IMG/VR virus record: IMGVR_UViG_3300029448_007456
Span: 32,001 to 96,000 of that record
From: a virus
DNA: 64,000 nt
Direction: 5' to 3' (one strand)
In this document: one piece after another, positions 13,392-47,004 of the stretch
Position numbering within the stretch: position 1 is the stretch's first letter
Layout of the letters: each line of letters starts with the position of its first letter
The notes under the pieces: generated by a model
Databases searched by the model: none
The model's input: only the letters and a program-made list of their open reading frames with translations
Told to the model about the DNA's origin: nothing
Translations under genes and position numbers: made by a program

Positions 13392-14408
13392 TTATTTAGA
13401 AGCCTTGGCTTTTAAATCCATTGTGGTTAAGTTTTCTACAATTGCTTTGACTTCTGCCGCCTTGTCTTCTGCAAGTGGCACCAGTCCGAGTGAACCAAGA
13501 AAACCATCAATAGATGTGGCTTCATCTGATATGAACAATTTAGCATATTCCTCAATGCCAGGAACGATGCCAACATGATCTTTTTTGATGTAGTAAAACA
13601 GAGGTCTTGCTATTGGATATTCATATGATTGAATTGTTTCCAATGAAGGCTTGACTCCGTTCACTGTAGATCCTTTGATGGCATCTTTATTTTCCAACAG
13701 ATATGAATAACCAAAGAATCCAAATCTATCAGGACTGTCTTTAAGTTTGTTCACAATGAGTGTGTCGTTCTCACCCATCTCTGTGGTTGCACCATCTTCT
13801 CTGAAGTGTTTGCACCCGTTTTTTTCTGTTTGTAGGTCTTTGGCTCCAGCTTCTTTACAGCCTTTTTTCATCACTAATGATTCCCAAGCATCTCTGGTGC
13901 CCGATGATGGTGGTGCCACCAATATATCGATTTTCATGTTTGGCAGTGATGCATCAATTTCTGACCACTTTGTGTATGGATTAGGCACTAGTTTGCCGTC
14001 CACAGGCACTTCTTTGGCCATTGCTAACCACAACTGTTTAGTGGTCACTTTCATGTCAGGACCTTCCAGTGAGTTGGCAAACACAATGCCGTCGTTGCCT
14101 ACAATAACTTCAACAACACTGTCAACGCCATTGTCTAAACACAATTTGGCTTCTTTGGACTTCATAGCCCTTGAAGCATTTGTGATGTCTGGATGTTCTA
14201 GGCCTACACCGGCACAGAACATTTTCATACCACCGCCTGATCCAGTGGATGCCACAGTGGGTGCTTTTGAACCAGCTTCGCTCAGTCTTTCTGCCACAAC
14301 AGTAGAGTATGGATACACTGTAGATGAACCTACAATGTTAATGATATCTCTTGCCTGTAGTGTGGAAGAAAGGAGAACTGAAGCTAGTAGGATTACTAAC
14401 TTGTTCAT
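13392..14408 (-). CDS. pstS: Phosphate ABC transporter substrate-binding protein
   Basis: IVGSSTVYP, STGSGGG.K.FC.G.G..HPDI.NASR, PPSSGTRD, YPIARPLFYY. Confidence 0.92.
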   Translation of the reverse strand: MNKLVILLASVLLSSTLQARDIINIVGSSTVYPYSTVVAERLSEAGSKAPTVASTGSGGGMKMFCAGVGLEHPDITNASRAMKSKEAKLCLDNGVDSVVEVIVGNDGIVFANSLEGPDMKVTTKQLWLAMAKEVPVDGKLVPNPYTKWSEIDASLPNMKIDILVAPPSSGTRDAWESLVMKKGCKEAGAKDLQTEKNGCKHFREDGATTEMGENDTLIVNKLKDSPDRFGFFGYSYLLENKDAIKGSTVNGVKPSLETIQSYEYPIARPLFYYIKKDHVGIVPGIEEYAKLFISDEATSIDGFLGSLGLVPLAEDKAAEVKAIVENLTTMDLKAKASK

Positions 14409-14471
14409 GATAAATTTCCTTTCATTGTATGGAGTATCCATAGATATATATTAAAATTATATGCTTATATA

Positions 14472-14559: not shown

Positions 14560-14787
14560 TCAATGAATGGATACAGTTTTGCAATGATCACGTCGATTGA
14601 ATCCAGTGCCTTCTAGTTCTTCTTGTTTTGCAAACAGGCAAAACCATGCAGAATCTTCACAGTCTTTCTGACGATCATAAACACCATCGGATATAATTGC
14701 TTTGTGGGTATTGGGTTTACGATAATAGAATGCATGACCTTTGAGTTGGTCATCATAATACACAGTGATATGTGGTTCACGTGTCAT
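14560..14787 (-). CDS. Hypothetical protein
   Basis: ORF; start re-placed at MTREPH. Confidence 0.45.
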   Translation of the reverse strand: MTREPHITVYYDDQLKGHAFYYRKPNTHKAIISDGVYDRQKDCEDSAWFCLFAKQEELEGTGFNRRDHCKTVSIH

Positions 14788-15397
14788 GCAAATATTTATT
14801 GAAATTTTGCGTGGTATCCCTTGAAAAATTTGCATGTCTATGCCACTGTTTTGGACATTGATATTCTGCAGGTGCTATCCAAACAAAATTGACATGTGGA
14901 TAACTTTCAAACAGTTTGTCCAATTGATGATGCCAATACTTAGGATCGACTGCTTTGTTATCATATCCATTTGTATTGGCATACACATTAGTGTAGTTGT
15001 TTTGTTGTGTCATATCGAAACCGATCAGATAGCAAAGATTGGTTGTCTGCATGTTCCATTCATAGTTTTTAAATGCACAAGCAATGTTGATTGCATGTGG
15101 ACCTGAATTCCAATGCCAAGGGTTGTCTTCTCTTTCAGTTCCATTGTATGGCAGTTCTGGATAAGCACTTACCATGAACTTAGTATTCCAGTTTGGTCTA
15201 GTGTATAACTGTCCTGGGTAGTCAGATGATAATACCTCAGCAACCATTCGCTGATCAGCGGCTGACACTATGTCTGGATGAAAGTCTCTTACGATTGCGT
15301 TACAGCCGACAGTGACTCCTTGCTTTTTACAAGAGTCAAGATCTATCGGCTGTCTGCTCTCACCATTGCCTATTACAAAGGTGATGCGTTTTTTCAT
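14777..15397 (-). CDS. Maf/MptE-like (glycosyltransferase-related) domain protein
   Basis: FVIGNGESR, GCNA, PD.V..D, NSG..A, YLIGFD pattern. Confidence 0.5.
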   Translation of the reverse strand: MKKRITFVIGNGESRQPIDLDSCKKQGVTVGCNAIVRDFHPDIVSAADQRMVAEVLSSDYPGQLYTRPNWNTKFMVSAYPELPYNGTEREDNPWHWNSGPHAINIACAFKNYEWNMQTTNLCYLIGFDMTQQNNYTNVYANTNGYDNKAVDPKYWHHQLDKLFESYPHVNFVWIAPAEYQCPKQWHRHANFSRDTTQNFNKYLHDT

Positions 15398-17175
15398 TAA
15401 AATAGATATTTTAAACTGACAGCAAATTCTCTGCCAGGCTGTGTATATCCCATTGGTCTTTCATATGCCAAATCAGTCACGTTGTTGATTGTGGCAGTTA
15501 CTTCAGTGGCGTCACTCACTTTATACAAAAGTCCGATGTCTGTGTAGTGTTGTTCACTATTGGTCACAGTTGACCAATTGGTTGGGTGAATATCTTTGTG
15601 TTCACCATAGTAGTTCCAATCATACCAAACTTTCAACTTGTCTGTGACATCATGACCTAAACCAACCACAGCAGAATACTGCGGGCGTCTAGTTAATTGC
15701 ACATCATCTGAATCCTGTGCATGCACGGACGTTACACTAAAGTTGATTGTTGTGTCATCATACTGTTGTTTGTTCTGCAACTCCCAACCTTCCATAGAAC
15801 TGGTTCCAGTTGTGTTGTTATAAGTTGAGTTTGAATAAGATATCATGTTGTCAATTTTTGTGGAAAACACAACAAACTTGCTGTCCATACTGACATATTC
15901 GTTTTTGACTTTTGACACCAATCCAATTTCGTTGTTCACTGAACGTTCTTCTTCAAGACTAGCATTGCCTGAATATCCGAAGTTGTCAGCACCATACATT
16001 TCATACAGTGTAGGCGCACGGAATCCTGTGTTGTGTCCTGCAATGGCTGTCATGTGGTCATTTAATTTGTAACCAACACCAAGTCGATACGTGTTAACAT
16101 CATCATGTAAACTGTTAGTATCATGTCTAACTCCTGTGTTCAACAACACATTACCTAGTTTGTAATCTGCATTTAGAAAATATGCATTTGCTTGTGCTGA
16201 TTTGTCCACAGATGAATTGTAAGATCCTTTGTTGTCAAATTTTGCTGTGTAGGCTGATCCTTCTGTTCCAACGGTGTATTCTACTGGCCCAAATGTATTG
16301 GTATGGGATAGTTTGATATGATTAGTTGAACTGTCGTAAGTGTCTATCTCTGTGCCATTCACATATTCACGGTCATGCACGTTTCTATCAATGACAAAAT
16401 TTACAACATCTGATTCGTATCTTGCTTGTAAAAAGTAAAAATCTGAATCTGATGTGTAGTCAGTGTCGTCAGTGCCACCTGCATCAAGGTCAGCACTTGC
16501 ATCTCTATACACCACTGTGGTGCCAATTTTTGCATTTTCAGTGTAGTGCGTTGAATCAAAGTTCAATGTCTGATACTGATATCCGTCATTGTCTCCGCCT
16601 TCTACAATAGAATATCCATCGGATGATTCTTGATACATTTTAATAGAGTATATTCCTGATGGTTGTGCAGTAAAATAGTTTACTCCAAGGCCTGCGGTGT
16701 TGTTAGATCCAGTCTTAAGTTCTACACTGTCTTCTAATGTGCCTCCAGTGTTGATGTTAATAGCACCACCAATTGCACCAGGTCCCCAAAGTGTGCTCTG
16801 CGATCCTTTGTATAAATCAATTGAACCTGCATAAGTCACTGAATCTACACCTGCATCAAACAATCCGTTAGTTGTAGAATGGTCAGTTACTGGTGATCCG
16901 TTGATCATAAACAGTGTGTGGTTGGAATTAGTTCCTCTTGTAAACACAGAGGTTTGTTGTCCACGTGGTCCAGATCTTATTGCTTGAAATGAAGTATTGC
17001 TGTCCAGCACTTCACCTATGGTCACAGTGTTCTTATAGGACTGTGTTTTGACTGTGTCCACATTTGTTGTTAATAAACTTTTGTCACTTGGCACAATATA
17101 CAGTGTGACATCAAGAGCACTGGCAGTTGCTATTGATCCAAAAACAAAAGTCAAGATTATCGTTAGTATTTTCAT
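15397..17175 (-). CDS. btuB: TonB-dependent cobalamin receptor
   Basis: Plug motifs SVFTRGTNSNHTL.MING and KGSQSTLWG..AIGGAINI; GFRAPTLYEMYG; C-terminal F; downstream of a B12 riboswitch, with the start after its AGGAG. Confidence 0.88.
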   Translation of the reverse strand: MKILTIILTFVFGSIATASALDVTLYIVPSDKSLLTTNVDTVKTQSYKNTVTIGEVLDSNTSFQAIRSGPRGQQTSVFTRGTNSNHTLFMINGSPVTDHSTTNGLFDAGVDSVTYAGSIDLYKGSQSTLWGPGAIGGAININTGGTLEDSVELKTGSNNTAGLGVNYFTAQPSGIYSIKMYQESSDGYSIVEGGDNDGYQYQTLNFDSTHYTENAKIGTTVVYRDASADLDAGGTDDTDYTSDSDFYFLQARYESDVVNFVIDRNVHDREYVNGTEIDTYDSSTNHIKLSHTNTFGPVEYTVGTEGSAYTAKFDNKGSYNSSVDKSAQANAYFLNADYKLGNVLLNTGVRHDTNSLHDDVNTYRLGVGYKLNDHMTAIAGHNTGFRAPTLYEMYGADNFGYSGNASLEEERSVNNEIGLVSKVKNEYVSMDSKFVVFSTKIDNMISYSNSTYNNTTGTSSMEGWELQNKQQYDDTTINFSVTSVHAQDSDDVQLTRRPQYSAVVGLGHDVTDKLKVWYDWNYYGEHKDIHPTNWSTVTNSEQHYTDIGLLYKVSDATEVTATINNVTDLAYERPMGYTQPGREFAVSLKYLF

Positions 17176-17278
17176 AAAGTCTCCTTGCTTTGTTCTACCC
17201 CTAGGTGGCATTCGGACTATAACCGTATCAAGTAATGTGAACGAATTTCACGTCGCTTTCCCACTATGCTTTTAGGAA
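17176..17278 (-). ncRNA. Cobalamin riboswitch, class II (AdoCbl-variant/Cbl-IIa type)
   Basis: CCUAAAAGC.UAGUGGGAAAG.GACGUGAAAUUCGU...UUACUUGAUACGGUUAUA.UCCGAAUGCCACCUAGG; P13 AAAG-CAAGGAGA-CUUU carries the RBS. Confidence 0.92.
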
Positions 17279-17285
17279 CTATTGT

Positions 17286-17314
17286 ATTTTATATGTTTTA
17301 GATGTGTTTGTCAA
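17286..17314 (-). promoter_or_regulatory. sigma70 promoter of the riboswitch-btuB unit
   Basis: TTGACA-N17-TAAAAT directly ahead of the riboswitch. Confidence 0.75.
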
Positions 17315-17328
17315 GAACTTTGATTGTT

Positions 17329-17775
17329 TTATGCAAATCTAAATTTTGGTATTTCAAAAGTGTGCTTCTGCAGATATTCGAACATTTGTGCAAAGATCAA
17401 TGTGCTGATCAACATGTTCACATAGAACGGAATGGCCATCATATAACAAGTGATCAAACCTTCCAGAGTATAACCATACCATCCACCGGTCCACACAGCA
17501 AAATTAGTCACAACAAAAAACAGTGTTGCACTAAAAATTGCACCACGTTGAAAATATGCAATTGCAAATAGACTGGCGTATACCCACAGCATGTAAGAAT
17601 GAAACCCAATTATTGCATCTGAAATAATGTATGCAATTAAACATGGCAGTACACTGACAAGACCAGTCATCATAAACACAGCAATCACTGGTGTAAAGTT
17701 TGGTGGATGCGGAAGCAGTCTAGACGCCACTATGCAAAAAAGCATAAAAATTGTGGTATAAGTATTTTTTGACAT
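17329..17775 (-). CDS. DUF6580-like membrane protein (putative cobalamin transporter component)
   Basis: SRLLPHPPNFTPV, SD..IGF, FF.VTNFAVW, GL..CY.MAIPF motifs; multiple TM helices. Confidence 0.7.
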   Translation of the reverse strand: MSKNTYTTIFMLFCIVASRLLPHPPNFTPVIAVFMMTGLVSVLPCLIAYIISDAIIGFHSYMLWVYASLFAIAYFQRGAIFSATLFFVVTNFAVWTGGWYGYTLEGLITCYMMAIPFYVNMLISTLIFAQMFEYLQKHTFEIPKFRFA

Positions 17776-17823
17776 GGTTACGTTACTATATATTTATTTT
17801 ACTGTTTTGTCAAACAAATCGTA

Positions 17824-19350
17824 ATGATTGATTTCCTATTAATCACTGGCCCTGTGAGAGACTTAACTTTTGCACCAATGGCACTAGCACAGTTAAAAAG
17901 TATCAGCGAAGCGGCTGGATTCACATGTAAAACCATAGATTACAATCAAAAATACTTTCATCACCAATGCAACAAAGACAAAAACAAGTTTTATGAACAA
18001 ACCAAAATGTTTAGAAACACTTTGCCACTGACCTATGATGAAATTGCCAACAGTCATTGTGGTACTTGGTTGGCACATAAAGTAATACAAGATGTCAAAA
18101 AATACAATCCTAAGACAGTTGGGGTGAGCAGTTTTAGTAGATACAACAACATATCTTGCGTGTTGATCTGTAAAATTATCAAACAGCATTTTGCACACAT
18201 CAAAATTATTATTGGTGGATATGGTCTACACAATCCCCTAAATTATCTAGATGCCTTTGATGCAACTCTACAATCACAACCCGAAGTTGGCGAGTTACTC
18301 AAAGTCAACAACTTATGTGACACCTATATTATCGGTGATGCAGAACACAAATTGATAGAATGGTTGAAAGATCACACAGTGGATTATTCTGGATTGAACA
18401 AAAGGATTATTGATGCCAATTGGACTGATACTCCTTATGCTGACTTCGAGGATCTCGACATAGAAAATTACGACTATCACAAAGGATTAATACTACCAAT
18501 GACTGGCAGTAAAGGATGTGTAAGAAAATGCACTTTCTGTGACATCCCACATAACTTTGGTAAATTTTCGTTCAAGTCAGGAAAATCAATAGCAGATGAA
18601 GTGATGCATCTTTATGAACACTATGGAGCCAAAACAATTTATTTTACAGATTCGCTGGTGAATGGCAGCCTCAGTGCATTCATTGATTATGTAGAAACTT
18701 TAGCAGAACTAAAAGCAAAGAAAGGGTATGACGATCTAAGATGGACTGGACAATACATTGTGAGACCAGCACATCAAATTCCTGATCCGGAAAATTATTA
18801 TGCTCTGTTGAATGAAAGTGGAGCAGAAGGACTTACTATAGGTATTGAGTCTGGCAGTAACAAAGTTTTGGCTGAAATGAAAAAACACTGCACTGTGGAT
18901 GATATTCTCACTGAAATCAATTATTTTTCCTCACATGATGTGTCTTGTGGTATATTATTGTTTCCTGCATTTCCATCTGAGACTAGACAAGATTTTTTAG
19001 CCACAGTGAAAATGTTGAAAAAATTACAACCATATTGGTGCAACGGTACAATAAATCTTGTAAACTTCAACACATTTTATGGCAATGAAAATTACAGTGA
19101 ATGGGGTAAAAAGACAGAACAAGACGGCATGTATTCACATCCCAATGATCATAGTTTATGGTGGTATAAAAATAATCCAAAACTAGATTACAAAGAGATT
19201 GTGTTTAGGAGACTGGTATTGAATAAGTTGGTTGAAACTCTCAATATTCCAACCAATCACGAATATGACTACATGACCCAAATTCATAATTATTTTACAA
19301 CAAACATAGGAAAGGTAAAAAAGTTTCATGCTGACATTAAAAAACATTGA
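17824..19350 (+). CDS. B12-binding radical SAM enzyme
   Basis: N-terminal B12-binding pattern (PMALAQL, VGVSS, IIIGG, GDAE); SKGCVRKCTFC; FTDS; IGIESGS. Confidence 0.85.
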   Translation: MIDFLLITGPVRDLTFAPMALAQLKSISEAAGFTCKTIDYNQKYFHHQCNKDKNKFYEQTKMFRNTLPLTYDEIANSHCGTWLAHKVIQDVKKYNPKTVGVSSFSRYNNISCVLICKIIKQHFAHIKIIIGGYGLHNPLNYLDAFDATLQSQPEVGELLKVNNLCDTYIIGDAEHKLIEWLKDHTVDYSGLNKRIIDANWTDTPYADFEDLDIENYDYHKGLILPMTGSKGCVRKCTFCDIPHNFGKFSFKSGKSIADEVMHLYEHYGAKTIYFTDSLVNGSLSAFIDYVETLAELKAKKGYDDLRWTGQYIVRPAHQIPDPENYYALLNESGAEGLTIGIESGSNKVLAEMKKHCTVDDILTEINYFSSHDVSCGILLFPAFPSETRQDFLATVKMLKKLQPYWCNGTINLVNFNTFYGNENYSEWGKKTEQDGMYSHPNDHSLWWYKNNPKLDYKEIVFRRLVLNKLVETLNIPTNHEYDYMTQIHNYFTTNIGKVKKFHADIKKH

Positions 19351-19897
19351 ATCAGAGATTGATAAATGTGTTGCTCTAGCAGATGAGTATTCCTATAGAT
19401 TTGAAATTGAACTGCAAGGTGTATTGTGCAACGGAGATCCTAACACATTTATAAAAATTAATCAAACCACATACTATGAAGAAAAGTTTAATGGTGACAA
19501 AAGTTTTGTGATCGATTGTGTGTTGCCAAAAGATAGTGTGTGCAACATTGTGATTGGATTACAGCACAAACAAACTTCCAACACAATACTACAGAACAAT
19601 AAAATCATACAAGATCAATTTGTCAAAATACGAGACATAAGAATCAATCAAATCAGTTTAGTAAAAAATAATTTATACTTTTGGGACCATTCCAAGTTTG
19701 TGATGCAAAACAATGGTGAAGTCCTGCACAACAGAGATGGAGCATATTTTAATGGTGAATTCATATTGTCGTTGCAGACACCTATATTTCCTTATCTCAG
19801 TAAATTGTTTCAGGACAATATAAAAAATTACAATGTTGAAAACAAATTTTTGTCATCTGAACACAGACAGGAATTGATTCAAGCAGTGTATGATTAG
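19328..19897 (+). CDS. Hypothetical protein coupled to the radical SAM gene
   Basis: Overlapping ORF. Confidence 0.55.
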
Positions 19898-20490
19898 ATG
19901 TCTTCTCTGTGAGCGATAATTTTATCAACTAATCCAAACTCTAATGCTTCTTCAGGAGACATGAATTTATCACGTTCCATAGAATCATTAATAGTTTCGA
20001 TTGTTTGCCCTGTATGGTCAGCATACATTTGGTTGAGTTTTTTCTTGATCTTTGTGATTTCTTCTGCATGGATAAGGATGTCAGTGGCTTGACCTGATGC
20101 TCCTCCTGATGGTTGATGAATCATGATGCGTGAATTTTTCAGTGCATATCGTTTTCCTTTGGTACCTGCCATAGCCAGTAGGGATCCTGCTGAACAAGCT
20201 TGTCCTATGACTAGTGTTGATATGTCACACTTGATAAACTGCATTGTGTCATACATGGCTAGACCTGCTGTGACCAGTCCGCCTGGCGAATTAATATACA
20301 TAAAAATGTCTTTGTCAGGTGCCTGTGATTCCAAAAATAGTAATTGTGCTGACACAATAGAGGACACTTGTTCGTTGATGCCTCCAGTCAAAAATATAAT
20401 TCTTTCTTTTAATAAACGTGAAAATATATCATAGGACCTTTCGCCCTTTGATGTCTGTTCTATAACAACAGGTACTAAACTCATATCCAT
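19894..20490 (-). CDS. clpP: ATP-dependent Clp protease proteolytic subunit
   Basis: [59 protein letters not shown]. Confidence 0.97.
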
Positions 20491-20496
20491 GCTAAT

Positions 20497-20525
20497 ATTA
20501 TACTACTCCTCTACAGTCTCGTCAA
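20497..20525 (-). promoter_or_regulatory. sigma70-type promoter for leaderless clpP
   Basis: TTGACG-N17-TATAAT, then 6 nt to ATG. Confidence 0.7.
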
Positions 20526-20886
20526 CTGGTTGACGTTGTTCCGTTGGTTTTTCACATGCCCAACCTGTTCCATCAAACCACCTACCATCATCACACAGAT
20601 AATAGTAACCCCAAAAACCAGGCTTGTATCTTCCACATTCATCTTTGTATCTTCTATAAAATTTTTTTCTACGCACTTTGCCTTGATAGTGAGATCCATC
20701 TGGTTCAACAACATAGTTGCTTCCGCCAAAAGATTCATACATCCTTGCTACAAATGTGCCATTGATATCAATGTTGGATAGTAGTTTAGGAAATGCTAAT
20801 CGTTTCTTAAGTTCTTGCTTGGCTAGATAATCTTTATATTTTTCAGGATCGGTTACCCTTAAAAATGCGAGTTCTTTATCTTCCAT
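20503..20886 (-). CDS. Hypothetical protein
   Basis: ORF. Confidence 0.5.
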   Translation of the reverse strand: MEDKELAFLRVTDPEKYKDYLAKQELKKRLAFPKLLSNIDINGTFVARMYESFGGSNYVVEPDGSHYQGKVRRKKFYRRYKDECGRYKPGFWGYYYLCDDGRWFDGTGWACEKPTEQRQPVDETVEE

Positions 20887-20912
20887 TATCTAACCAAACT
20901 GTATATTTTCAT

Positions 20913-21098
20913 TTACTTGGACGAAGCAGCTGCCTTCTCTTCAAGTATTTCTTTTCTTCTTGTCTTGATCAACTTGCCAAGTTCTTGTAAAGCCTTTCTG
21001 GCTCTTGTTGCAGATGCTTTAACACCCTTTTCAGCAAACTTAGTATTTTCTGCCATGTAAGCTTCCATTTGATTTTGTATTTCATCCGTTGTTGACAT
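20913..21098 (-). CDS. Small basic Hc1/histone-H1-like protein
   Basis: KF.EKGVKASATRARKAL.EL.K..K..RKEI; AAGGAG RBS fixes the start. Confidence 0.7.
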   Translation of the reverse strand: MSTTDEIQNQMEAYMAENTKFAEKGVKASATRARKALQELGKLIKTRRKEILEEKAAASSK

Positions 21099-21166
21099 AT
21101 TAATATATCTCCTTATTGCATTATTATATGCTCTGTAGACTGTTTCATGCAAGAAAAAGATTATTG

Positions 21167-21844
21167 TTAATTAAAAATTAATCCAGTAAATGACACAGTG
21201 AACTGTGGACAGTAGCCAAAATTGCTTGATGCATGGCCATGCCCCCATGGGATATGATACACTTGTCCTGCTTTCCAATGTGTTAACACAGTCTTTGATA
21301 TTTGAAATGCATGACCATCACTCCACTCATTAACAGACCACCACAGTCTTTTGAGTTGGCCTTGCTCATTTGTTTTAGTGACCGGATCCAAATTGATGTG
21401 TGGAAACTTTTTTGCATATGATCCTGCATCATCTTGATGCCATGCAACACCATGTCCTGGAAATTTTACTAAAAGTCTTATTAATATTGAAGCCGGATCC
21501 ACATTAAGTTTTGCAATGTTCTCCTTACCCAAAAGATCTTTCAGTTGTTCGTTGGTGTCTCCAAGTATGCCATAGTTTAATTCAAAGGTATTGTGTTCAT
21601 TTCTGCCTAACAAATTATTAATATTGGCCCATTGTTTAGCATGTGCAGGATAATGGTCCTTTGGCATTTCCCATTCTTGTTTTGCATTATGGAAATTTTC
21701 TATGGTAAAGTCAATCCATTGTTGAGGATTAATAGATAGTTGTGTAATTGATTTAACTGTTACAGGATCTAGGGAATCAAAATGTTTTTGCATTTCTGCC
21801 CATGGCTTATTGGCAAGCAAATCAACGTATTCATCTTTGTTCAT
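21167..21844 (-). CDS. 2OG-Fe(II)/cupin dioxygenase paralog
   Basis: PGHGVAWHQD...EWSDGH..Q...WKAG...HASSNFG; N-terminal similarity to 6542-7967 paralogs. Confidence 0.7.
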   Translation of the reverse strand: MNKDEYVDLLANKPWAEMQKHFDSLDPVTVKSITQLSINPQQWIDFTIENFHNAKQEWEMPKDHYPAHAKQWANINNLLGRNEHNTFELNYGILGDTNEQLKDLLGKENIAKLNVDPASILIRLLVKFPGHGVAWHQDDAGSYAKKFPHINLDPVTKTNEQGQLKRLWWSVNEWSDGHAFQISKTVLTHWKAGQVYHIPWGHGHASSNFGYCPQFTVSFTGLIFN

Positions 21845-22017
21845 AACAATTTAAATTTCTCATAATCAACTTTTAAAACTTTTTTGCCTGTGTTTTGAAA
21901 ATTTATTGTCACAGTGCCGTTAATACAGGATTGAACCTGTCCTTGACCCCATTCTGGATAGTCTACATGTTCAACAACTGCGCCAGGCACTAGTATTGAT
22001 TCTGATTGTCCAAGCAT
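21841..22017 (-). CDS. DUF3553-like small protein (58 aa, not in track)
   Basis: LVPGAVVEH...PEWGQGQVQS.I...VTINFQNTGKKV. Confidence 0.7.
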   Translation of the reverse strand: MLGQSESILVPGAVVEHVDYPEWGQGQVQSCINGTVTINFQNTGKKVLKVDYEKFKLL

Positions 22018-22532
22018 TATACTTTTAATTTAGCATAAGATTGTTGGACTGCTTGAGTTTGTGCCACAGCATCTGTAAGTGCATTGTGTTTGCCTTCTAT
22101 CTTTACACTGACATCAGCAAGATCAAACAGTGTGCGTGTGTCTCTCACTTCCCAAAACTTCCAAGTGACTGCTTGTTGCAATGATCGACAGACATCTTCT
22201 ATGATCACAACATCAAAAATTGCGCCATGACTCCACACATTAGAAGTGCCAAGGCCAAATGTATATAATTTTTTCATTGCATCTTTAAGATCAATTCGAT
22301 CATCACCTTCACCGAATGCATCTTCTTGTATCTGTTTGTCTTGTTGGCTCCACCAACCAAGTGTGTCTTCATTGATCACTCTGCCATAACTTTCTTGTGT
22401 TTCAAGAATAATTCTTTCATAATAGGTAGACTCTATATCTGTTGCATGTGGATCAAATCTACATGCTCCAATGGTCAATATGGCCGCATTGGGCGATGTT
22501 GCCAGTGTTTCTAAATCAATCATTAAATGCAT
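22017..22532 (-). CDS. DEDDh 3'-5' exonuclease
   Basis: MIDLETL, WSHGAIFD, RDTRT, HNALTDA. Confidence 0.85.
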   Translation of the reverse strand: MHLMIDLETLATSPNAAILTIGACRFDPHATDIESTYYERIILETQESYGRVINEDTLGWWSQQDKQIQEDAFGEGDDRIDLKDAMKKLYTFGLGTSNVWSHGAIFDVVIIEDVCRSLQQAVTWKFWEVRDTRTLFDLADVSVKIEGKHNALTDAVAQTQAVQQSYAKLKV

Positions 22533-22569
22533 AATTTGAGTATATAAGGAAAAAAAGATACTGTCAACA

Positions 22570-22785
22570 CTGCTTGGAGGGCCTTGCTATGAACTCACCC
22601 CCAACGTCCGGCTAGCAGATCACATCATCTCTATGAAGTTTAAATGTGAGCCTACTTCCAACCATCCCCTTGCAAACTTAGCCATTGGGCCATCTAAAAC
22701 AAGGTCATGTGCGTTATCCCCCTGCCGAAGGATTATTCCGCCACAAGCTCTAAAAAGTTGCAACTAATTAGAATGCGTTGTTCAG
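22570..22785 (-). ncRNA. Orphan structured RNA of about 210 nt
   Basis: GC-rich non-coding island between its own TTGACG promoter (22793-22820) and the next gene's promoter (22539-22567); several hairpins. Confidence 0.6.
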
Positions 22786-22892
22786 TAATAGTATAATAGC
22801 ACTTTTATTAAATGCGTCAACCATATAAAAAATCATTGTTTTTTGCAGTTTTTTTGCCTGGAAAATCTTAATCCATAAATATTTGACTTATC

Positions 22893-24809
22893 ATGCTTAA
22901 TTTAGTGTTAGCACAACCTGGTTTCAGTTGGGGACCATCTCATCTGAATGCTCATTATCTTCCTTATTCAGTTGGTTGTTTGTGGGCGAAATGTCTAGAC
23001 AATCAAACAATTGTTGAAAATGTTGAACTTTTAGACATGATTGCTGTGCGTGAAGATATTCAACACTTTGTTGACAAATATGATAAAATTGATGTTATTG
23101 GTTTTTCTTGCTATGTTTGGAATTACAATTATGTCAATGCTTTAGCCAAAGCAATCAAACGCAAGTTTCCTGAGTGTGTTGTGGTTTTCGGAGGCCCAGA
23201 ACCAGAACACAGTGATCAAGACATATTTGTCAATAAACCTTGGCTTGACTGTGTGGTGGTGCAGGAAGGCGAAGTTAGTTTTGAAAGAATTCTTGAATGC
23301 TTGATTACTAAAAAAAGTTTGGAAACAATTCCTGGATTGGTAATCAACAAACGGGGTCAAAGACTGGTTACACCCATATCACAAAGAATAACTGATCTTG
23401 AGTCCTTGCCTTCACCCTACATCAAGGGCGTGTTTGATCATTTGTTTCACAAACACCCTGATATCACTTGGACAGCCATAATGGAAACCAACAGAGGTTG
23501 TCCTTACAAATGCACATACTGTGATTGGGGTAGCCTCACATTAAGCAAGATCAAAAAGTTTTTGCTGGACAAAGTGGAACAAGAAATCAAATGGATGAGT
23601 GATAAAAAAATAGACTTTGTTAACATAGCAGATGCCAACTATGGCATTTTCAAAGAAAGAGATTTAGCCATCACACGACTATTTGGCAAATATAGATCAA
23701 TCACTGGATGGCCAAAAGCAGTCACAACCAATTGGACAAAAAATGCCAAGAAGCATGTGTTGGACATTGCTCAAGAATTCAAGGATCAAGGCATTGCAAA
23801 CAGTGTGACAGTCAGTTTACAGAGTCTACACGATGATGTGTTGGATGCTGTTGAAAGGAAAAATTTTGAACTCAACAATATCGAAGAAATGTCCATGGCT
23901 TGTTTTGAAAAACAATTACCAGTGGCTGTTGATTTAATTTTGGGATTGCCTATGGAAACAAAAAAATCTTGGAGGCAGACATACTACAAGTTATTTGATC
24001 TAGACATTCATCAAGATTTTTACACACATCAAGCCATGCTGTTGGAAAATGCACACATGAATCAAAATCAATTGCATCAGTATGGTATGGAAAAATTTAC
24101 AAGGCCCATCAAGTTTACTGAAGACAATATGCAACACACTGAATACGCAACCTTTGTCAAAAGCACAAACACAATGACGTATGATGATATGATTGACTGT
24201 GCAATGCACACCAATTGGATTTATGCTCTGCATCACACTGGCCTAAGTTCTGAGCAGAGCAAATTTTTGCACAAACACAGCGGGATACCTTATGCAACTT
24301 TTTACAATGGTCTGATTGAATTTTTGTTGCAACATGATTTTATGCACAATTGTTATCAGCAAAGCGTTGAGCAAATCAAGATGTCCTACAGTGATATAAA
24401 CCAACCCACTTTGGAACAAATTGACCTTAGCCTAAGTGGTGAGTTTAATATACTTGAATGGAATATTATTAATAAAAAGATTGAAACTGATATACAAAAT
24501 TGCATCAAAGAGTTCATTGACACACGATTTACAATTGACAAGGATCTAGTTGATCAGTTGGACGTATATGCACAACTCAGTTACTTGACATTTGAAAATC
24601 ATACGAAGTTTGATCAACTGTCACATGAATTTGATTATAATTTTTATGAGGTCAACAATTTAAATGCTGACATGGCAAAAGGCAAACATACATATGTTTT
24701 TAAGAAAAAGTTATCACAGACTTTTGAAAACACTGTGGACTATGCAAATTACATGATTGTGCGAAAACGTAACATTCCTTCAAAGAACATCATCACACAA
24801 CAAGATTAG
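22893..24809 (+). CDS. B12-binding radical SAM enzyme
   Basis: LPYSVGCLW, IGFSCYVWN, VFGGP, EGE; ETNRGCPYKCTYCDWG; DANYG. Confidence 0.88.
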   Translation: MLNLVLAQPGFSWGPSHLNAHYLPYSVGCLWAKCLDNQTIVENVELLDMIAVREDIQHFVDKYDKIDVIGFSCYVWNYNYVNALAKAIKRKFPECVVVFGGPEPEHSDQDIFVNKPWLDCVVVQEGEVSFERILECLITKKSLETIPGLVINKRGQRLVTPISQRITDLESLPSPYIKGVFDHLFHKHPDITWTAIMETNRGCPYKCTYCDWGSLTLSKIKKFLLDKVEQEIKWMSDKKIDFVNIADANYGIFKERDLAITRLFGKYRSITGWPKAVTTNWTKNAKKHVLDIAQEFKDQGIANSVTVSLQSLHDDVLDAVERKNFELNNIEEMSMACFEKQLPVAVDLILGLPMETKKSWRQTYYKLFDLDIHQDFYTHQAMLLENAHMNQNQLHQYGMEKFTRPIKFTEDNMQHTEYATFVKSTNTMTYDDMIDCAMHTNWIYALHHTGLSSEQSKFLHKHSGIPYATFYNGLIEFLLQHDFMHNCYQQSVEQIKMSYSDINQPTLEQIDLSLSGEFNILEWNIINKKIETDIQNCIKEFIDTRFTIDKDLVDQLDVYAQLSYLTFENHTKFDQLSHEFDYNFYEVNNLNADMAKGKHTYVFKKKLSQTFENTVDYANYMIVRKRNIPSKNIITQQD

Positions 24810-25097: not shown

Positions 25098-26465
25098 CTA
25101 ATTGCCCTGGGTGGTAGAAAGAGTGCAACCTGCTTGTGTGCCACAGGTCATGTCAATGCTGTAATCTTGATCAGTGGATCCTTGCTGTGACAGATCAAAA
25201 TCAGTGGAATAGCCATCTAGATCAACACGAGCCGCATGGTTACCAGTGCCAGTTTGACTGATATCCACATCATGTGCATAACTGCCTGTACCAAGTGTTA
25301 GATCTAAATAGTGTTCACCTGTGCCTGACTGATTGATATCAACAGTGTTGTTGCCATTGTCTATGTCCACAAACAAAAACTTATCCCCATCGTTTAACTG
25401 TTGCATGGTGATCACATTAGAAGAAGAATCTAAATCCACACTCATGAAGTGCTCTGAAGATGTTGTACCATCATTGCGTTGTTGTAAAGTCAATGTGTTG
25501 GTTGATCCATCAATATCAATCAGCATTCTGTGATCTCCTACATCAGTGGCATAGTCACCTTGGGATAGATTCAGTGTGTTGGTATTGCCTGTGATGTCTA
25601 GTCCTATGCCGTTCCTACCACTGCTTCCAGATGTAGTCACATTGCCTTGATCAATATTGAGTGTGTTGTCGTTGCCTGTGATTTGTGAATCACTGGACCA
25701 ATCACTGCCAACAACAAAATTATCATTGCCTGCTTGTTCAATATTAATTGTGTTGTTGTTGCCTTGCACATTCATTTTAATCCCGCTGTCTGATGTGCCT
25801 TTGGCTGTGTTCACTGCTGTGGTTTGTGAAGATGTGATTGTAACATTAACTGTGTTTTGGTCAGTGGTTGCAAAACCAGAGTTAGGCATATCTAACCAAC
25901 CACTTGTAGAGTTTAAACTTAAATTAGATAAACTATAATGTATATCCATATTAGCAGAACCACCCCATTCATACCAGTTAATTTGTATTGGGTACCATTG
26001 ACCACCAACACCAGAAAATGAACCACTAGAGTTCCAATATGTTGGTCCTTGTTGAGCCCAGTCAGATATTACTTTAGTATTATTGATGTTTACAATAAGT
26101 CCATCATCATTACGACCAGCAAAATAAACTGTTGATGTTTGACCTGTGGTTCCTGGATGTTGCCAATAACCGGTGATAACTACCATTCTCTGATTAGCAC
26201 CATAATTATTATTATGAAGAACTATATTTCCACTATTCCAGTTGTAATTTAAACTGTCAGTAGTACCAGTTCCTTGTGATAGACCTACATAACTTGGACT
26301 AGAATTATTACAGGTAGAGAGATATGTATAGTTGTTAAAACAAGGTGACTCTACATAAGGTGCATAATGACTAATTGCAAATACTTCATAATTTAAACTT
26401 CCTGCATATGCACTTGAACAAAGCAAAAACAAGATGCTACTGATTTTGAAGAATGCTAATTTCAT
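25098..26465 (-). CDS. Secreted PA14-domain plus curlin-repeat protein
   Basis: Signal peptide; PA14 motifs NDDG.I.I...VI.DW and YPI.I.WYEWGG.A; C-terminal N.(I/L).I.Q.G repeats. Confidence 0.7.
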   Translation of the reverse strand: MKLAFFKISSILFLLCSSAYAGSLNYEVFAISHYAPYVESPCFNNYTYLSTCNNSSPSYVGLSQGTGTTDSLNYNWNSGNIVLHNNNYGANQRMVVITGYWQHPGTTGQTSTVYFAGRNDDGLIVNINNTKVISDWAQQGPTYWNSSGSFSGVGGQWYPIQINWYEWGGSANMDIHYSLSNLSLNSTSGWLDMPNSGFATTDQNTVNVTITSSQTTAVNTAKGTSDSGIKMNVQGNNNTINIEQAGNDNFVVGSDWSSDSQITGNDNTLNIDQGNVTTSGSSGRNGIGLDITGNTNTLNLSQGDYATDVGDHRMLIDIDGSTNTLTLQQRNDGTTSSEHFMSVDLDSSSNVITMQQLNDGDKFLFVDIDNGNNTVDINQSGTGEHYLDLTLGTGSYAHDVDISQTGTGNHAARVDLDGYSTDFDLSQQGSTDQDYSIDMTCGTQAGCTLSTTQGN

Positions 26466-28217: not shown

Positions 28218-28232
28218 TTATTTGTGTATCCC

Positions 28233-29030: not shown

Positions 29031-29031
29031 G

Positions 29032-29490: not shown

Positions 29491-29568
29491 GCTTGTATTT
29501 AATGGTTTTTGAACCCAAATGATGTGCAGACACTTATGAACAGTTGTGCAAAAGTTAAATACACACAT

Positions 29569-43213: not shown

Positions 43214-43531
43214 CTACTTGGTTTGTAAGGGTGGCACTGATGAAGCAGGCTGTATACCTGTGGTGCCTTGAATGTAATTGTCAGCGGCTTGCTTGTTGGC
43301 TTTTTGCATGGTAACCACAGATGCTTTGTTGAACACAAAGTCCTTGGTCATGTCACCCATCACAAGATACTGTTGCATGCCAATGCCTTGTTGTGTCATT
43401 GCAAGTGCCAGTGGTTTTGACACTTTCACTGTCTTGTCATCTTGTGATAAAAACTTTGCAATAACTTCGTCACCGCCTTGTATTCGCATAGCGATAATGT
43501 CATTTGACTTAAATCCTGCGTCGATAAGCAT
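43214..43531 (-). CDS. Hypothetical protein (possible Sm-like fold)
   Basis: I....G.EVIA...V.KP pattern; ends Y.Q.T.GI. Confidence 0.55.
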   Translation of the reverse strand: MLIDAGFKSNDIIAMRIQGGDEVIAKFLSQDDKTVKVSKPLALAMTQQGIGMQQYLVMGDMTKDFVFNKASVVTMQKANKQAADNYIQGTTGIQPASSVPPLQTK

Positions 43532-44631
43532 TAAAGTTTGAAACCTGCCAATGTGTCTTTGTTGACGTCTTGTTTGACTCCGCCAATGATGTATGATTCA
43601 ACTTCAGTTTCTTGTGGAGCAACTTGCAGTCCTGCTGACGATAACCAATGCTGTGTCCATGGTAGTGGGTTTGCATTAAGTGGACGATCAAATATAGGAT
43701 CAAATCCTATGGACTTTATTCTCTTGTTAGCAACAAATTCAACATAGTCACCTAATAGTTTTTCGTTAAGTCCTATGATGGTGCCCTCTTTCATCAAATG
43801 CTTGGCCCATGCTTTTTCTTCTTCAACACATAATTTATACATGTTAACAACTTCATCTTTGCATTCTTCAGTGATCTTTTTCATTTCAGGATCATCGCCT
43901 TCTTGCCACTTCTTAATAATCTGTGTGGACAAGTTTAAATGTGTTGCTTCATCTCTTGCAATGAATGATATAATCTTTGCAGAACCTTCCATAAGTTTAA
44001 GTTCTCCAAATGCAAATGTGCAGGCAAATGAAACATAAAATCTTAATCCTTCTAATATGTTAACATTGACCATAGCAAGATATAATTGTTTCTTGACTTC
44101 CTTAATGTCGCCTTTGCCTTTGACAAAGTAGTCTTGTGCTAGTGCTGAGAATCTATCATAGTTTTCTGTGACAGATATAGCACGTTTAACAATCTGTTCG
44201 TCATTTAATATTGTGTCAAACACTTCTGATGGGTCAGCATACACATTCTTCATAATGTATGTGTAAGAACGTGAATGGATAGTTTCCATAAAGTCCCAAG
44301 TGATAATGCAACCTTCAAGTTCGGGTAATGAGCAGTAAGGTAAGAAACTTAAACAAGGACCTCTGCCTTGCACACTGTCAAGCAGTGTTTGATATTTTAA
44401 GTTTGAAGTGAATATGTGTTTTTGTTCAGGACGGAATGTTTGAAAGTCTGCACGATCTTTCTGCAGAGATATTTCTTCTGGTCTCCAAAAGTAACCAAGC
44501 ATTCGTTGATTAAGTTTATCCATTTCTGGATATTTGAATTGATCATATCTTTGTGTGTTTTGATCTTCACCAAAAAACATAGGCTGTTTTGTAAAGTCTA
44601 CTTCATTTCTGTTGAATACTGTTTTGCTCAT
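43531..44631 (-). CDS. nrdB: Ribonucleotide reductase class Ia beta subunit
   Basis: FWRPEE, QTLLDSVQGR, ETIHSRSY, LEGLRFYVSF, ARDEATH, VAPQETE. Confidence 0.97.
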   Translation of the reverse strand: MSKTVFNRNEVDFTKQPMFFGEDQNTQRYDQFKYPEMDKLNQRMLGYFWRPEEISLQKDRADFQTFRPEQKHIFTSNLKYQTLLDSVQGRGPCLSFLPYCSLPELEGCIITWDFMETIHSRSYTYIMKNVYADPSEVFDTILNDEQIVKRAISVTENYDRFSALAQDYFVKGKGDIKEVKKQLYLAMVNVNILEGLRFYVSFACTFAFGELKLMEGSAKIISFIARDEATHLNLSTQIIKKWQEGDDPEMKKITEECKDEVVNMYKLCVEEEKAWAKHLMKEGTIIGLNEKLLGDYVEFVANKRIKSIGFDPIFDRPLNANPLPWTQHWLSSAGLQVAPQETEVESYIIGGVKQDVNKDTLAGFKL

Positions 44632-44667
44632 TGTGTTAATTATACTTCCTTGTGAATTTTAGTCAAC

Positions 44668-47004
44668 CTATATTGCACAGGCATCGCATGTTTCATCTTC
44701 TTCTTGTTCAGTCACAGACTCATTTATCTGTTGAACATTATCTTCTTGCACAGTGTCTTGTATGCCTTGTGGTTGCACAGTGTCTTCTTCACCTTTGTAG
44801 TCATATGTGTTTTGGTAATAAGAAGTTTTCCAACCTAACTTGTATGTGGTTAATAAGTCTTTGATCATCACACTCATTGGAACTTCATTGTTTTCATAGT
44901 GTAATGGATTGTATGACCAGTTGCCAGATATGGCTTGATCAAAAAACTTTTGCATGACGCTTACTATATTAATGTAACCTTCATTGGAAGGCATGTCCCA
45001 TAACAGTGTGTAATAATTTTTTAGTGTTTGGAATTGTGGCACCACTTGTTTGAGTGGACCTTTTTTGCTTTTTTTGGTTGATAGCAATGCACGTGGTGGT
45101 TCAATGCCATTGGTTGCATTTGATACTACACTTGAAGATTCGGAAGGCATCTGTGCAGACAGAGTAGAGTGTCTAATGCCATGCTGTTTAATTTGACTTC
45201 TTAACCATTCCCAATCACAGGTATATTTGAATTTACCAAGATCATCAACATCTTTCTTGTATGTGTCAATTGGCAATAAGCCATCTGAATACTTGGTTCT
45301 TTCATAATATTCACAAGCACCACGTTCTTTGGCAAGATTCATTGATGCTTTTAGTAGATAGTATTGAAAACATTCTGTAAGTTCATGCACCAAAGGTAAT
45401 GCTTCTTTGTCTGCATATTTCACTTTGTTCTTTGCTAGAAAGTGTGCCAAACCAATATAACCAACACCAAGTGATCTTCTTGCTTTGGTTGATCGTTCTG
45501 CCGCTTTGATTGGGTAACCTTGATAATCAATGATTTGATCCAATGCTCTTACAGATAAGTCGCATAAGTTTTCTAAGTCCTCAAAGTTTTTAAGTGTGCC
45601 CACATTAATAGCAGACAAAATACACAGTGCAATTTCGCCTTCGTTGTCATCAACGTGTTGAATAGGCACAGTCGGTAGAGTAATTTCTTGACATAGGTTA
45701 GACATACGCACAGGATCTTTGAATGATGAATGTGAATTTGCATGATCAATATTCATAACATATATTCTGCCTGTCTCTGCTCTTTCTTTCAACAACGCAG
45801 AAAATAAATCCATTGCTTTTATTTTCTTTTTGGGTGTCTTGCGATCATTTTCATATTTCACATAAAGTTCATCAAACTTTTTGTTGTCATGTCCAAATGT
45901 TTCATAAAGTTCAGGCACATCATGTGGCGAGAACAATGTGATGTCTCCATCCTGTAACACACGTTCATAGAATATTTTTGATATCTGAATTGAGTAATCC
46001 AACTTACGCACACGATTGTCTTCTGTGCCTTTGTTATTCTTCAACACAAGAATGTCTTCTATCTCTTGATGCCATATTGGAAAATGCACAGTGGCTGATC
46101 CGCCACGGATGCCATTCTGTGTGCATGAACGCACAGTTGCTTCAAACACTTTTAAGAATGGAATCACTCCTGTGTGTGCAACTTCGCCACCTCTAATTTT
46201 AGAATTAATGGCTCTTATCCTTCCAAGGTTTAATCCAATGCCCGCTCTCTGTGCAATGTAGTATCCAACAGCAGAGTTGGATGAAAATATTGAAGGCAAT
46301 GTATCATCAACATCAACCAACACACAAGATGCAAACTGTTTGATAGGTGTTCTTACTCCACCCATCACAGGTGTTGGAATATTAATTTGATATGTTGATA
46401 TTGCATCATAATATTTTTTGATGTATTGCATTCTTGTTTCTTTTGGATAGTTGGCAAACAATGTAGCCGCAATCATCATATACATGTATTGTGGAGTTTC
46501 ATACACTTCGCCTGTGCTTCTATCCTGCACAAGATATTTGTCCACCACTTGTCTTAATCCTGCATATGTAAAGTCAAGATCTCTGTCATGTTTAATCCAT
46601 GTGTTGAGTTTTTTCAACTCAGTTTTTGTATAATTTTCAACGACTTGTTTGTCATACACACCGCGTTTTACATTTTGAATAATAACATTAACAAAATGTT
46701 TAGGCTGAAACTGACCAAATACTTCTTTGTAGACGTTCCATAACAACAGTCTTGCCGCCGCAAATTGATAGTTGGGATTTTCAAGTGTAATGAGATCGTT
46801 TGCAGAACGTATTAATATGTCCTGTATGTCTTTGGAGGTCATGTTGTTGGTGAATTGTATGTGAGAATTCATTTCGATTTGAGAAGCACTCACGCCTGTT
46901 AGACCCTCACAAGCTTGCTCAACAACGAAGTGCATCTTGTTTATGTCTAATGGTTCTTTGGAGCCATCTCTTTTAATAATGTTTGTTTCAATTGGTTTGT
47001 TCAT
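44668..47004 (-). CDS. nrdA: Ribonucleotide reductase class Ia alpha subunit with ATP cone
   Basis: IKRDG..E, PTPVM.G.RT, ASCVL, SNLCQEI, AQMPSE.SS, C-terminal CDAC. Confidence 0.97.
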   Translation of the reverse strand: MNKPIETNIIKRDGSKEPLDINKMHFVVEQACEGLTGVSASQIEMNSHIQFTNNMTSKDIQDILIRSANDLITLENPNYQFAAARLLLWNVYKEVFGQFQPKHFVNVIIQNVKRGVYDKQVVENYTKTELKKLNTWIKHDRDLDFTYAGLRQVVDKYLVQDRSTGEVYETPQYMYMMIAATLFANYPKETRMQYIKKYYDAISTYQINIPTPVMGGVRTPIKQFASCVLVDVDDTLPSIFSSNSAVGYYIAQRAGIGLNLGRIRAINSKIRGGEVAHTGVIPFLKVFEATVRSCTQNGIRGGSATVHFPIWHQEIEDILVLKNNKGTEDNRVRKLDYSIQISKIFYERVLQDGDITLFSPHDVPELYETFGHDNKKFDELYVKYENDRKTPKKKIKAMDLFSALLKERAETGRIYVMNIDHANSHSSFKDPVRMSNLCQEITLPTVPIQHVDDNEGEIALCILSAINVGTLKNFEDLENLCDLSVRALDQIIDYQGYPIKAAERSTKARRSLGVGYIGLAHFLAKNKVKYADKEALPLVHELTECFQYYLLKASMNLAKERGACEYYERTKYSDGLLPIDTYKKDVDDLGKFKYTCDWEWLRSQIKQHGIRHSTLSAQMPSESSSVVSNATNGIEPPRALLSTKKSKKGPLKQVVPQFQTLKNYYTLLWDMPSNEGYINIVSVMQKFFDQAISGNWSYNPLHYENNEVPMSVMIKDLLTTYKLGWKTSYYQNTYDYKGEEDTVQPQGIQDTVQEDNVQQINESVTEQEEDETCDACAI

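Follow-up and report, generated by a model that had tools for sequence, protein, structure and literature searches.

The stretch of viral DNA analysed here, 64,000 nucleotides (nt) long and referred to below as the window, represents bases 32001-96000 of the 114,778-bp IMG/VR record IMGVR_UViG_3300029448_007456, whose completeness is about 34% according to CheckV; statements about the contig concern this whole fragment of about 115 kb. Between clpP and a DNA ligase gene, a position with identical flanks in many independent contigs, the window carries a cassette in which a cobalamin (vitamin B12) riboswitch precedes the gene of a BtuB-like TonB-dependent receptor, beside genes for a DUF6580 membrane protein and for a radical S-adenosylmethionine (SAM) enzyme. 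Three consecutive genes on the minus strand code for the DUF6580 protein (148 amino acids (aa), 17775..17329), the receptor (592 aa, 17175..15397) and a 206-aa cytosolic protein (15397..14777). Two radical SAM genes are located on the plus strand, namely rSAM1 (508 aa, 17824..19350), which is divergent from the DUF6580 gene and separated from it by 48 bp, and rSAM2 (638 aa, 22893..24809).

The initial annotation of this region had proposed a promoter followed by an intact Cbl-II riboswitch, and both were recovered. A promoter scan of the 5.5 kb between positions 14500 and 20000 gave, as its best two sites, two sigma-70-like promoters with 11/12 matches, one of which (TTGACA-17-TAAAAT, 17314..17286, minus strand) would drive the riboswitch-btuB transcript, with a predicted 5' end at about 17279; equivalent promoters precede the switches of three relatives (L017, L031 and L023). 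The aptamer, 81 nt in length (17278..17198, minus strand) and of the env8 type of Cbl-IIa, matched the Rfam family AdoCbl-II (RF01689) over the full model (1-81/81) with 78.4 bits vs. a gathering score of 36.5 (E 6e-18), and is the sole Rfam family hit in the window. It is followed by an expression platform (17197..17176, minus strand) composed of a 6-nt linker, J1/13, and of the hairpin P13 (17191..17176), which contains the ribosome-binding site (RBS) and whose stem AAAG/CUUU closes the loop L13, CAAGGAGA. The CAAG of L13 is complementary to the CUUG of the aptamer loop L5 (UACUUG), so that the ACUUG loop, its partner in the RBS loop and the stem described earlier are all present. Minimum-free-energy folding of the leader was uninformative (z +1.6), as expected for a fold that depends on ligand and tertiary contacts. 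Since aptamer and platform precede the ATG of btuB, and the DUF6580 gene lies upstream with its own promoter (TTGACA-17-TATAGT, 17813..17785, minus strand), the switch would control btuB only: the DUF6580 gene is indeed found upstream of btuB, as had been noted, but it is not under the control of the switch, which lies downstream of it.

For comparison, env8 was taken to be the eighth row (JCVI_SCAF_1096627830159/1185-1300; GenBank AACY021350931.1) of the AdoCbl-variant alignment that Weinberg et al. 2010 supplied in Stockholm format. This assignment is consistent with the G at position 12, the 7-nt J1/13 linker and the location of P13/L13 at nucleotides 89-102, numbering facts that come from the env8 papers (PMC6158498, PMC5028336); the RNA is also called env8HyCbl or env8Cbl-IIa (structure PDB 4FRG, cited in PMC6158498). 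As suspected from the start, the window aptamer is very close to env8, with 72/81 identical positions, and it shares 79/81 positions with row 5 of the same alignment. L5 and L13 are the same as in env8 throughout, including two unpaired purines in the same place, and the RBS-hiding kissing loop can therefore form in the window leader. It was established experimentally for env8 that the cobalamin-dependent docking of L5 on L13 occludes the RBS and blocks translation (PMC5028336), and that small upper ligands are preferred (PMC5028336, PMC6158498). By analogy, the window leader is predicted to bind hydroxo-/methyl-cobalamin, with a preference for small upper ligands.

A degenerate pattern derived from three phage copies identified 83 env8-type leaders, 23 in IMG/VR and 60 in metagenome contigs; an earlier, stricter DNA pattern had matched one contig only. 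Among the 39 distinct leaders, P1, which was not constrained by the search pattern, is 100% paired and displays compensatory double changes at three pairs, and the P13 pair 91-104 is GC in 32 and AU in seven. The kissing-loop columns are invariant, hence provide no covariation evidence for L5-L13, and the whole-structure covariation score exceeded those of all 500 shuffles and of all slid controls. The covariation thus indicates that selection acts on env8-type switches in phage genomes. At aptamer positions 42 and 62 (17237 and 17217 in the window; J4/5 and L6), 28 leaders have C-G, 10 have G-C and one has U-G, which suggests a long-range pair; as the change follows two clades, it reflects few independent events. 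Downstream, a BtuB-like gene follows all 74 leaders having at least 400 nt of sequence on that side, its product being 25-97% identical to the window receptor.

Examination of the contigs carrying these leaders also bears on env8 itself, whose row matches the metagenome contig L205 at 116/116 positions. Encoded on this contig are tail-fibre functions, namely three collagen-like fibre proteins, of which one has a baseplate-wedge connector domain (phrog_677, E 2e-40), and a fibre assembly protein, as well as glycosyltransferases; the switch, a 535-aa BtuB-like gene product and a convergent class-B-like radical SAM gene follow. A sister contig is laid out in the same way and has, in addition, an Asp/Asn hydroxylase, a second radical SAM gene and a DegT-type sugar aminotransferase, and T4 Gp23 was found on another contig of the env8 group. 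The suggestion that some environmental Cbl-II switches are of phage origin is therefore well supported, and env8 itself appears, from its sequence context, to be a phage regulatory element of the same kind.

A btuB-like gene was indeed present behind the switch: the receptor has a signal peptide and consists of a Plug domain (PF07715, 48.8 bits) and a barrel domain (PF00593, 100.2 bits), and its two best NCBIfam families are both B12 receptors (TIGR01779, TonB-B12, E 9e-49, and NF007926). The ORF finder placed the start at 17211, within the aptamer. The ATG at 17175, which is preceded by GGAG and begins the signal peptide, is the real start; the segment DVTLYIV, located after this peptide, resembles a TonB box. 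A quick, midpoint-rooted tree of BtuB proteins, the cellular rows of which came only from DUF6580-bearing loci, showed two large phage clades; one of them, the env8-group clade, has the SAR11-labelled proteins as its sister, and the window receptor belongs to the other. As a separate observation, the DUF6580 frame runs into the btuB start without intergenic space in three IMG/VR loci (L015, L016 and L019), where no riboswitch reached the gathering score; phages are therefore not uniform in their regulation.

The DUF6580 protein (PF20221, E 6e-26) was modelled with AlphaFold2 at a mean predicted local distance difference test score of 82. With an exhaustive aligner, on which the fold assignment is based, the top 15 of 48,161 PDB representatives were all S-components of energy-coupling factor (ECF) transporters, including BioY (Z 12.4) and BtuM (Z 12.0), and the first unrelated chain had a Z of 6.8; the Foldseek E-values were weak, about 1-2. 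A Cys in an LxxCY motif, at most a candidate equivalent of Cys80 of BtuM, is shared by 12 of the 14 aligned DUF6580 proteins (all except those of L029 and L030). Of the 16 IMG/VR loci, 13 have DUF6580 as the gene immediately upstream of btuB; as two loci start at btuB, this represents 13 of the 14 with upstream sequence. The riboswitch precedes DUF6580 itself in L023 and L027, and SAR11-labelled genomes display the order AdoCbl-II, btuB, DUF6580. Beyond these, a classical cobalamin riboswitch was found in 28 of 40 other DUF6580-bearing genomes, mostly of SAR116 but also of Ignavibacteria, and 25 of the 30 classical matches are situated inside the DUF6580 locus, typically 2.1-2.4 kb upstream. 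BtuM of Thiobacillus denitrificans is a solitary, S-component-like B12 transporter (Rempel et al. 2018, PMC6072759). From the structural model and the gene context, the best reading of DUF6580 is that of a candidate inner-membrane corrinoid carrier, which would work like BtuM without belonging to its family. No paper mentioning DUF6580 was found in the literature search. As regards expression, only 9 nt separate the -10 hexamer of the DUF6580 promoter from the ATG, with no recognisable Shine-Dalgarno sequence; a nearly leaderless mRNA would result.

Seven radical SAM genes are present on the contig, four of class-B build, all with a CxxxCxxC motif, and three of the twitch/SPASM type. Apart from rSAM1 and rSAM2, they are located at contig positions 6868-7731, 25909-27768 and 98724-100196 and at window positions 32930-34069 (minus strand, twitch-domain protein, NF033640 at 312 bits, above cut-off) and 42078-42986 (minus strand, SPASM/twitch-like). 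The earlier view of the gene at 22893 as a B12-binding radical SAM enzyme held. Its product rSAM2 (CPYKCTYC at residue 203), of the TokK/CysS/KedN5 type, contains the B12-binding domain PF02310 above cut-off (50.8 bits), scores 231 bits with NF033712 and aligns with TokK (7kdx) over residues 22-479 (E 8e-76). The paralogue at 25909-27768, which lies outside the window, also has PF02310 above cut-off, and in both proteins the homology to TokK (E 1e-75) and to CysS is full-length and starts with the N-terminal cobalamin domain (residue ~20). On these alignments, rSAM2 and its paralogue can be identified with confidence as cobalamin-dependent radical SAM C-methyltransferases.

Concerning rSAM1 (CVRKCTFC at residue 232), which shares its overall build with the gene at 98724-100196, the earlier description stands for the divergent position and the 48-bp gap but only partly for B12 binding, as PF02310 reached 20.5 bits, below the cut-off of 32.1. 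Its class-B architecture is reflected in the matches of its model to TsrM (E 8e-17), MgmA, TokK, CysS and OxsB, and its best family is the cobalamin P-methyltransferase PhpK, with an alignment extending into the N-terminal domain. Judging from the model, cobalamin binding by rSAM1 is plausible.

Association between riboswitch-btuB units and enzymes of this type was frequent in the relatives. A class-B-like radical SAM gene occurs in 17 of 22 loci with at least 3 kb on both sides of the switch, and in seven of the eight with at least 4 kb, usually at a distance of 1.7-3.1 kb and mostly adjoining btuB or DUF6580. The anticipated co-occurrence of btuB with such genes was thus observed, as a link that is not obligatory. 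Four arrangements of the rSAM1-like gene with respect to btuB were recorded: divergent, convergent, downstream on the same strand, and upstream.

As for other needs for B12, the only large subunit of ribonucleotide reductase on the contig is the class Ia NrdA, encoded with NrdB at 43531..47004 (minus strand); this enzyme does not use B12 and, as stated at the outset, is not its sink. No other B12-binding domain, CobS (CobS_N) or CobT was found on the contig.

Taken together, these results make it reasonably probable that this flexible accessory cassette causes cobalamin uptake by the infected cell, to the benefit of the cobalamin-dependent radical SAM enzymes of the phage itself, which upholds the earlier view of a viral system for sensing, importing and using B12, the use by phage enzymes being suggested by gene linkage. 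The sigma-70-type promoter would drive the synthesis of a leader folding into the env8-type Cbl-IIa aptamer. Upon binding of hydroxo-/methyl-cobalamin, L5 would, as in env8, dock on the RBS-bearing L13 and turn off translation of the BtuB-like receptor; receptor synthesis being shut off once cobalamin is bound, uptake would be self-limiting. The receptor would import the corrinoid across the outer membrane with the help of the host TonB, and the DUF6580 protein, expressed from its own promoter, would carry it across the inner membrane in the way BtuM does. The users would be rSAM2 and its paralogue, with confidence, and probably rSAM1. In relatives, the neighbouring genes code for tail fibres, glycosyltransferases, a DegT-type sugar aminotransferase and a hydroxylase, and they point to the methylation of a sugar, a fibre or a surface component in the host-recognition region; cassettes of lipopolysaccharide and radical SAM genes have been described in the host-recognition cluster of pelagimyophages (PMC7029224). 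On a wider scale, and as a tentative proposal to which we give somewhat less than even credence, phages of B12-poor streamlined ocean bacteria may install a feedback-regulated vitamin line, made of the env8-type receptor unit and the DUF6580 carrier, for methylases that decorate tail fibres or surface glycans, env8 itself being one such phage element.

Several observations weigh against this interpretation. Neither TonB (TonB_C) nor ExbB was found on the contig, which is a fragment of the genome; host energy coupling is therefore required, and the claim that the system is self-contained was not borne out. For DUF6580, phmmer and a 14-sequence profile retrieved no BtuM chain at E up to 10, the marginal hits of the profile in the PDB being FliQ (E 0.17) and an ECF-CbrT chain (E 0.66). 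DUF6580 was not found on the available stretches of the env8-group contigs, so it is not obligatory. The host, probably SAR11 or a comparable streamlined heterotroph, is a candidate only. The 115 kb showed no further B12 enzyme that could account for the uptake genes, the nrdJ and metH considered at the outset included; since these 115 kb represent about 34% of the genome, such an enzyme may be encoded in the rest. The remaining adverse points concern rSAM1, its distribution and the receptor, and each of them feeds an alternative explanation.

First, rSAM1 might not use cobalamin at all, its N-terminal domain being an AprD4-like Rossmann or a MiaB-like domain and its adjacency to btuB the result of a shared hot spot for gene cassettes. 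Besides the sub-threshold PF02310 score, its sequence hits in the PDB are restricted to the radical SAM core, and Foldseek places the cobalamin-free AprD4 (E 1e-15) and MiaB near TsrM, with matches nearly as good. The hot-spot idea draws on a comparison of near-identical relatives, where rSAM1 and the adjacent gene for a 189-aa protein of no assigned family (19328..19897, plus strand) occur or are missing as a pair between clpP and DUF6580, both being present in L168, L176 and L196 and both absent in L199 and L206. Moreover, the identities to the window proteins are uncoupled (BtuB/DUF6580: 97%/69% in L199, 86%/96% in L168). As rSAM1 and the 189-aa gene are missing from relatives with a 97% identical BtuB, the region exchanges gene cassettes by recombination. 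We nevertheless regard this explanation as unlikely, because the riboswitch-btuB unit has rSAM1-like neighbours in four separate arrangements and because the alignment with PhpK reaches into the N-terminal domain.

Second, the import module could feed the B12 metabolism of the host (methionine synthase, class II reductase) and thereby raise phage yield, rather than supply the radical SAM enzymes of the phage. The OM43 bacterium known as the host of the related phage Melnitz encodes a cobalamin riboswitch and a btuB of its own, which shows that hosts of this kind use B12 (PMC9004378), and some relatives possess the riboswitch and btuB with no radical SAM gene in the available sequence; among close relatives, L199, L206 and the L163 group lack rSAM1 beside the module. 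This alternative appears distinctly unlikely in view of the B12-independent class Ia reductase of the phage, of the class-B-like genes that adjoin btuB or DUF6580 in four arrangements, and of the presence of at least two confident cobalamin methylases on the contig. Type SAR11 genomes, in addition, are devoid of TonB-dependent transporters (PMC3400609), which was counted as a need for import.

Third, the BtuB-like protein could remodel the outer membrane (superinfection exclusion, receptor decoy, lysis timing) or import another compound, the switch only reporting the state of the host. The receptor is well below the equivalog cut-offs of its two best families (166.6 vs. 599.7 bits for TIGR01779 and 121.4 vs. 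836 bits for NF007926), so its ligand is deduced mainly from the riboswitch. Furthermore, the env8-group receptors are trimmed to 535 aa and the cassette sits among tail-fibre and surface-glycan genes, with no TonB on the contig. Set against this are the cobalamin-specific switch, which is retained ahead of the gene in every one of 74 cases and shows compensatory changes, and the pairing of receptor and DUF6580 in bacterial cobalamin-riboswitch loci. A role other than cobalamin import, which would also leave the link to cobalamin enzymes unexplained, is in our judgement improbable, and cobalamin import for phage enzymes is retained as the preferred interpretation.

As to its origin, sequence comparison identifies the contig as a fragment of a marine T4-like myophage of the pelagimyophage/Melnitz group. 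The adenylate cyclase that it encodes shares 62% identity with its counterpart in Methylophilales phage Melnitz and 46% with the one in Pelagibacter phage HTVC008M. Phage-type genes include those for NrdA, NrdB, ClpP, ClpA and an ATP-dependent ligase, together with baseplate-wedge and tail-fibre PHROG hits; with PstS, CsgG and FecR, this gene set agrees with the published features of pelagimyophages and Melnitz (PMC7029224, PMC9004378). Gp23 was not found on the contig, a fragment of about a third of the genome; T4 Gp23 is present on a 52.6-kb contig bearing the same riboswitch-btuB unit. Among the relatives, which were found in IMG/VR by an alignment-based scan after a single-protein scan had returned none, L022 (IMGVR_UViG_3300020477_000990, 328,149 bp) is a complete, terminally redundant genome of a T4-like jumbo phage with Gp23, DUF6580 and a BtuB-like gene followed about 4 kb downstream by a KedN5-like radical SAM gene; a scan of 21.6 kb around its btuB returned no AdoCbl-II match. 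Among GenBank phages, the region had no megablast match, nor did tblastn with BtuB and rSAM2 yield anything relevant. That the stretch would be SAR11-type cellular DNA misclassed or misassembled as viral, an idea fed by the riboswitch-btuB-DUF6580 island beside a KedN5-like radical SAM gene in the glycan region of SAR11-labelled genomes and by the missing Gp23, is very unlikely given phage genes on both flanks that are syntenic in many contigs (clpP, ligase, exoribonuclease, NrdAB, baseplate, tail fibre), a gene order and a riboswitch subtype unlike the SAR11 cellular form, and module-bearing contigs with T4 Gp23, one of them the complete 328-kb genome with terminal repeats.

The SAR11 loci were also inspected in their own right. 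Four contigs, among which the 340-kb SAR11 single-cell contig L062 (the others being L052, L073 and L080), have AdoCbl-II, a TonB-dependent receptor and DUF6580 in a glycan region (NeuB, methyltransferases) beside PrmC. The flanking PrmC and glycan genes settled the chromosomal origin of L062; an rpoB test of the SAR11 contigs was not decisive. The SAR11 cellular switches and the viral switch of L023 belong to a subtype different from that of the window, with CCUG in L5 and a longer platform with CCAGG.

Among the other features of the window, the 206-aa gene, whose start overlaps the btuB stop, belongs to phrog_30607, has no known family function and is also found behind btuB in window-like and L017-like phages; as its product has no signal peptide, a role as a substitute for TonB or BtuF was rejected. 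Approximately 340 bp further downstream lies a gene for a PstS-family phosphate-binding protein (13392-14441, minus strand), which was considered as a B12-binding protein and rejected, since it matches the phosphate-binding PBP_like_2 and PstS families. A 54% identical PstS gene is located in L031 and L201 about 6 kb downstream of the riboswitch, past btuB and an rSAM1-like gene. The ORF-free gap directly upstream of an Rv2179c-like exoribonuclease gene contains a weak full-length match to the manA RNA motif (22567-22770, minus strand, 16.7 bits vs. a gathering score of 55.2, E 0.061), and a faint tmRNA-like fragment was noticed at 22796-22855. Finally, a FecR-domain protein, CsgG and the divergent adenylate cyclase (phrog_35576) are encoded at 25098-32485, a curli-pore locus known from Melnitz and pelagimyophages.

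With regard to earlier work, the supplementary table of the pelagimyophage survey (Zaragoza-Solas et al. 2020, PMC7029224) names a 'TonB-dependent vitamin B12 receptor' under the transport genes; the survey reports no riboswitches in these phages, and the Melnitz study (PMC9004378) describes glutamine switches only. No report of phage-borne cobalamin riboswitches, or of btuB as an auxiliary metabolic gene, was found in a literature search that covered few subscription journals. New here are the census of env8-type leaders, their radical SAM neighbours, the phage context of env8, and the fold and loci of DUF6580.

Riboswitches have rarely been reported in phages; in marine T4-like phages, the cobalamin switch described here occurs commonly and is subject to selection. 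For env8, previously known only as 'marine', a context is now available, that of the leader of a phage btuB in a tail-fibre/glycan cluster. This context suggests why env8 prefers hydroxo-/methyl-cobalamin, the forms relevant to class-B radical SAM methylases; the same preference also fits hosts that may not make adenosylcobalamin. If the interpretation is correct, the model RNA of cobalamin riboswitch structural biology, which is also used as the Riboglow tag, is a phage element. DUF6580 is nominated as a widespread component of B12 transport in SAR116, SAR11, Ignavibacteria and phages. Viruses would then be consumers in the B12 economy of the ocean, carrying a set of enzymes plus the supply of their cofactor.

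The locus can be set beside several known systems. It resembles btuB of E. coli, under a classical AdoCbl riboswitch (RF00174), in its regulatory logic, in which a leader that senses cobalamin shuts down (in the window by prediction) the translation of a TonB-dependent receptor for this vitamin; it differs by its small class II aptamer without peripheral extension, by the predicted preference for small ligands, by being encoded by a virus, and by a receptor only distantly related to E. coli BtuB (167 bits with TIGR01779 vs. a cut-off of 600). With BtuM, the DUF6580 protein has in common its small size, the S-component fold (root-mean-square deviation of 3.2 Å over 137 residues at the Z of 12.0) and a position adjoining btuB in organisms that lack an ECF module, where the context predicts B12 movement across the inner membrane, whereas sequence similarity is not detectable, the length is 148 aa vs. 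about 22 kDa for BtuM, and no residue can be aligned with the cobalt-ligating Cys80. Set beside the C-methyltransferases TokK, CysS and KedN5, rSAM2 and its paralogue align with TokK over both the cobalamin and the radical SAM domains and carry CxxxCxxC, but reach 231 and 208 bits vs. the cut-off of 700 of the NCBIfam KedN5 family, and their setting is a phage.

The island of SAR11 (Pelagibacteraceae) shares AdoCbl-II, btuB, DUF6580 and often a KedN5-like radical SAM gene in a surface-glycan region. Its order is riboswitch-btuB-DUF6580, compared to DUF6580-riboswitch-btuB in the phages, its switch is of the CCUG subtype with the long, CCAGG-containing platform, and its BtuB is at most 33% identical to that of the window. 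With respect to the pelagimyophage survey (PMC7029224), DUF6580, the B12 dependence of the radical SAM genes and env8 are not mentioned there. The closest system remains env8, from which the window leader differs in P1 (UUCC/GGGG vs. GGCC/GGCC), in P13 (AAAG/CUUU vs. GAG/CUC), at position 12 of J1/3 (A, as in the crystallised env8 variant, vs. G in wild-type env8) and at positions 42/62 (C-G vs. G-C), while both have in common the class and subtype, L5, L13, J6/3, a short linker (6 nt in the window, 7 in env8) and a BtuB-like receptor gene downstream.

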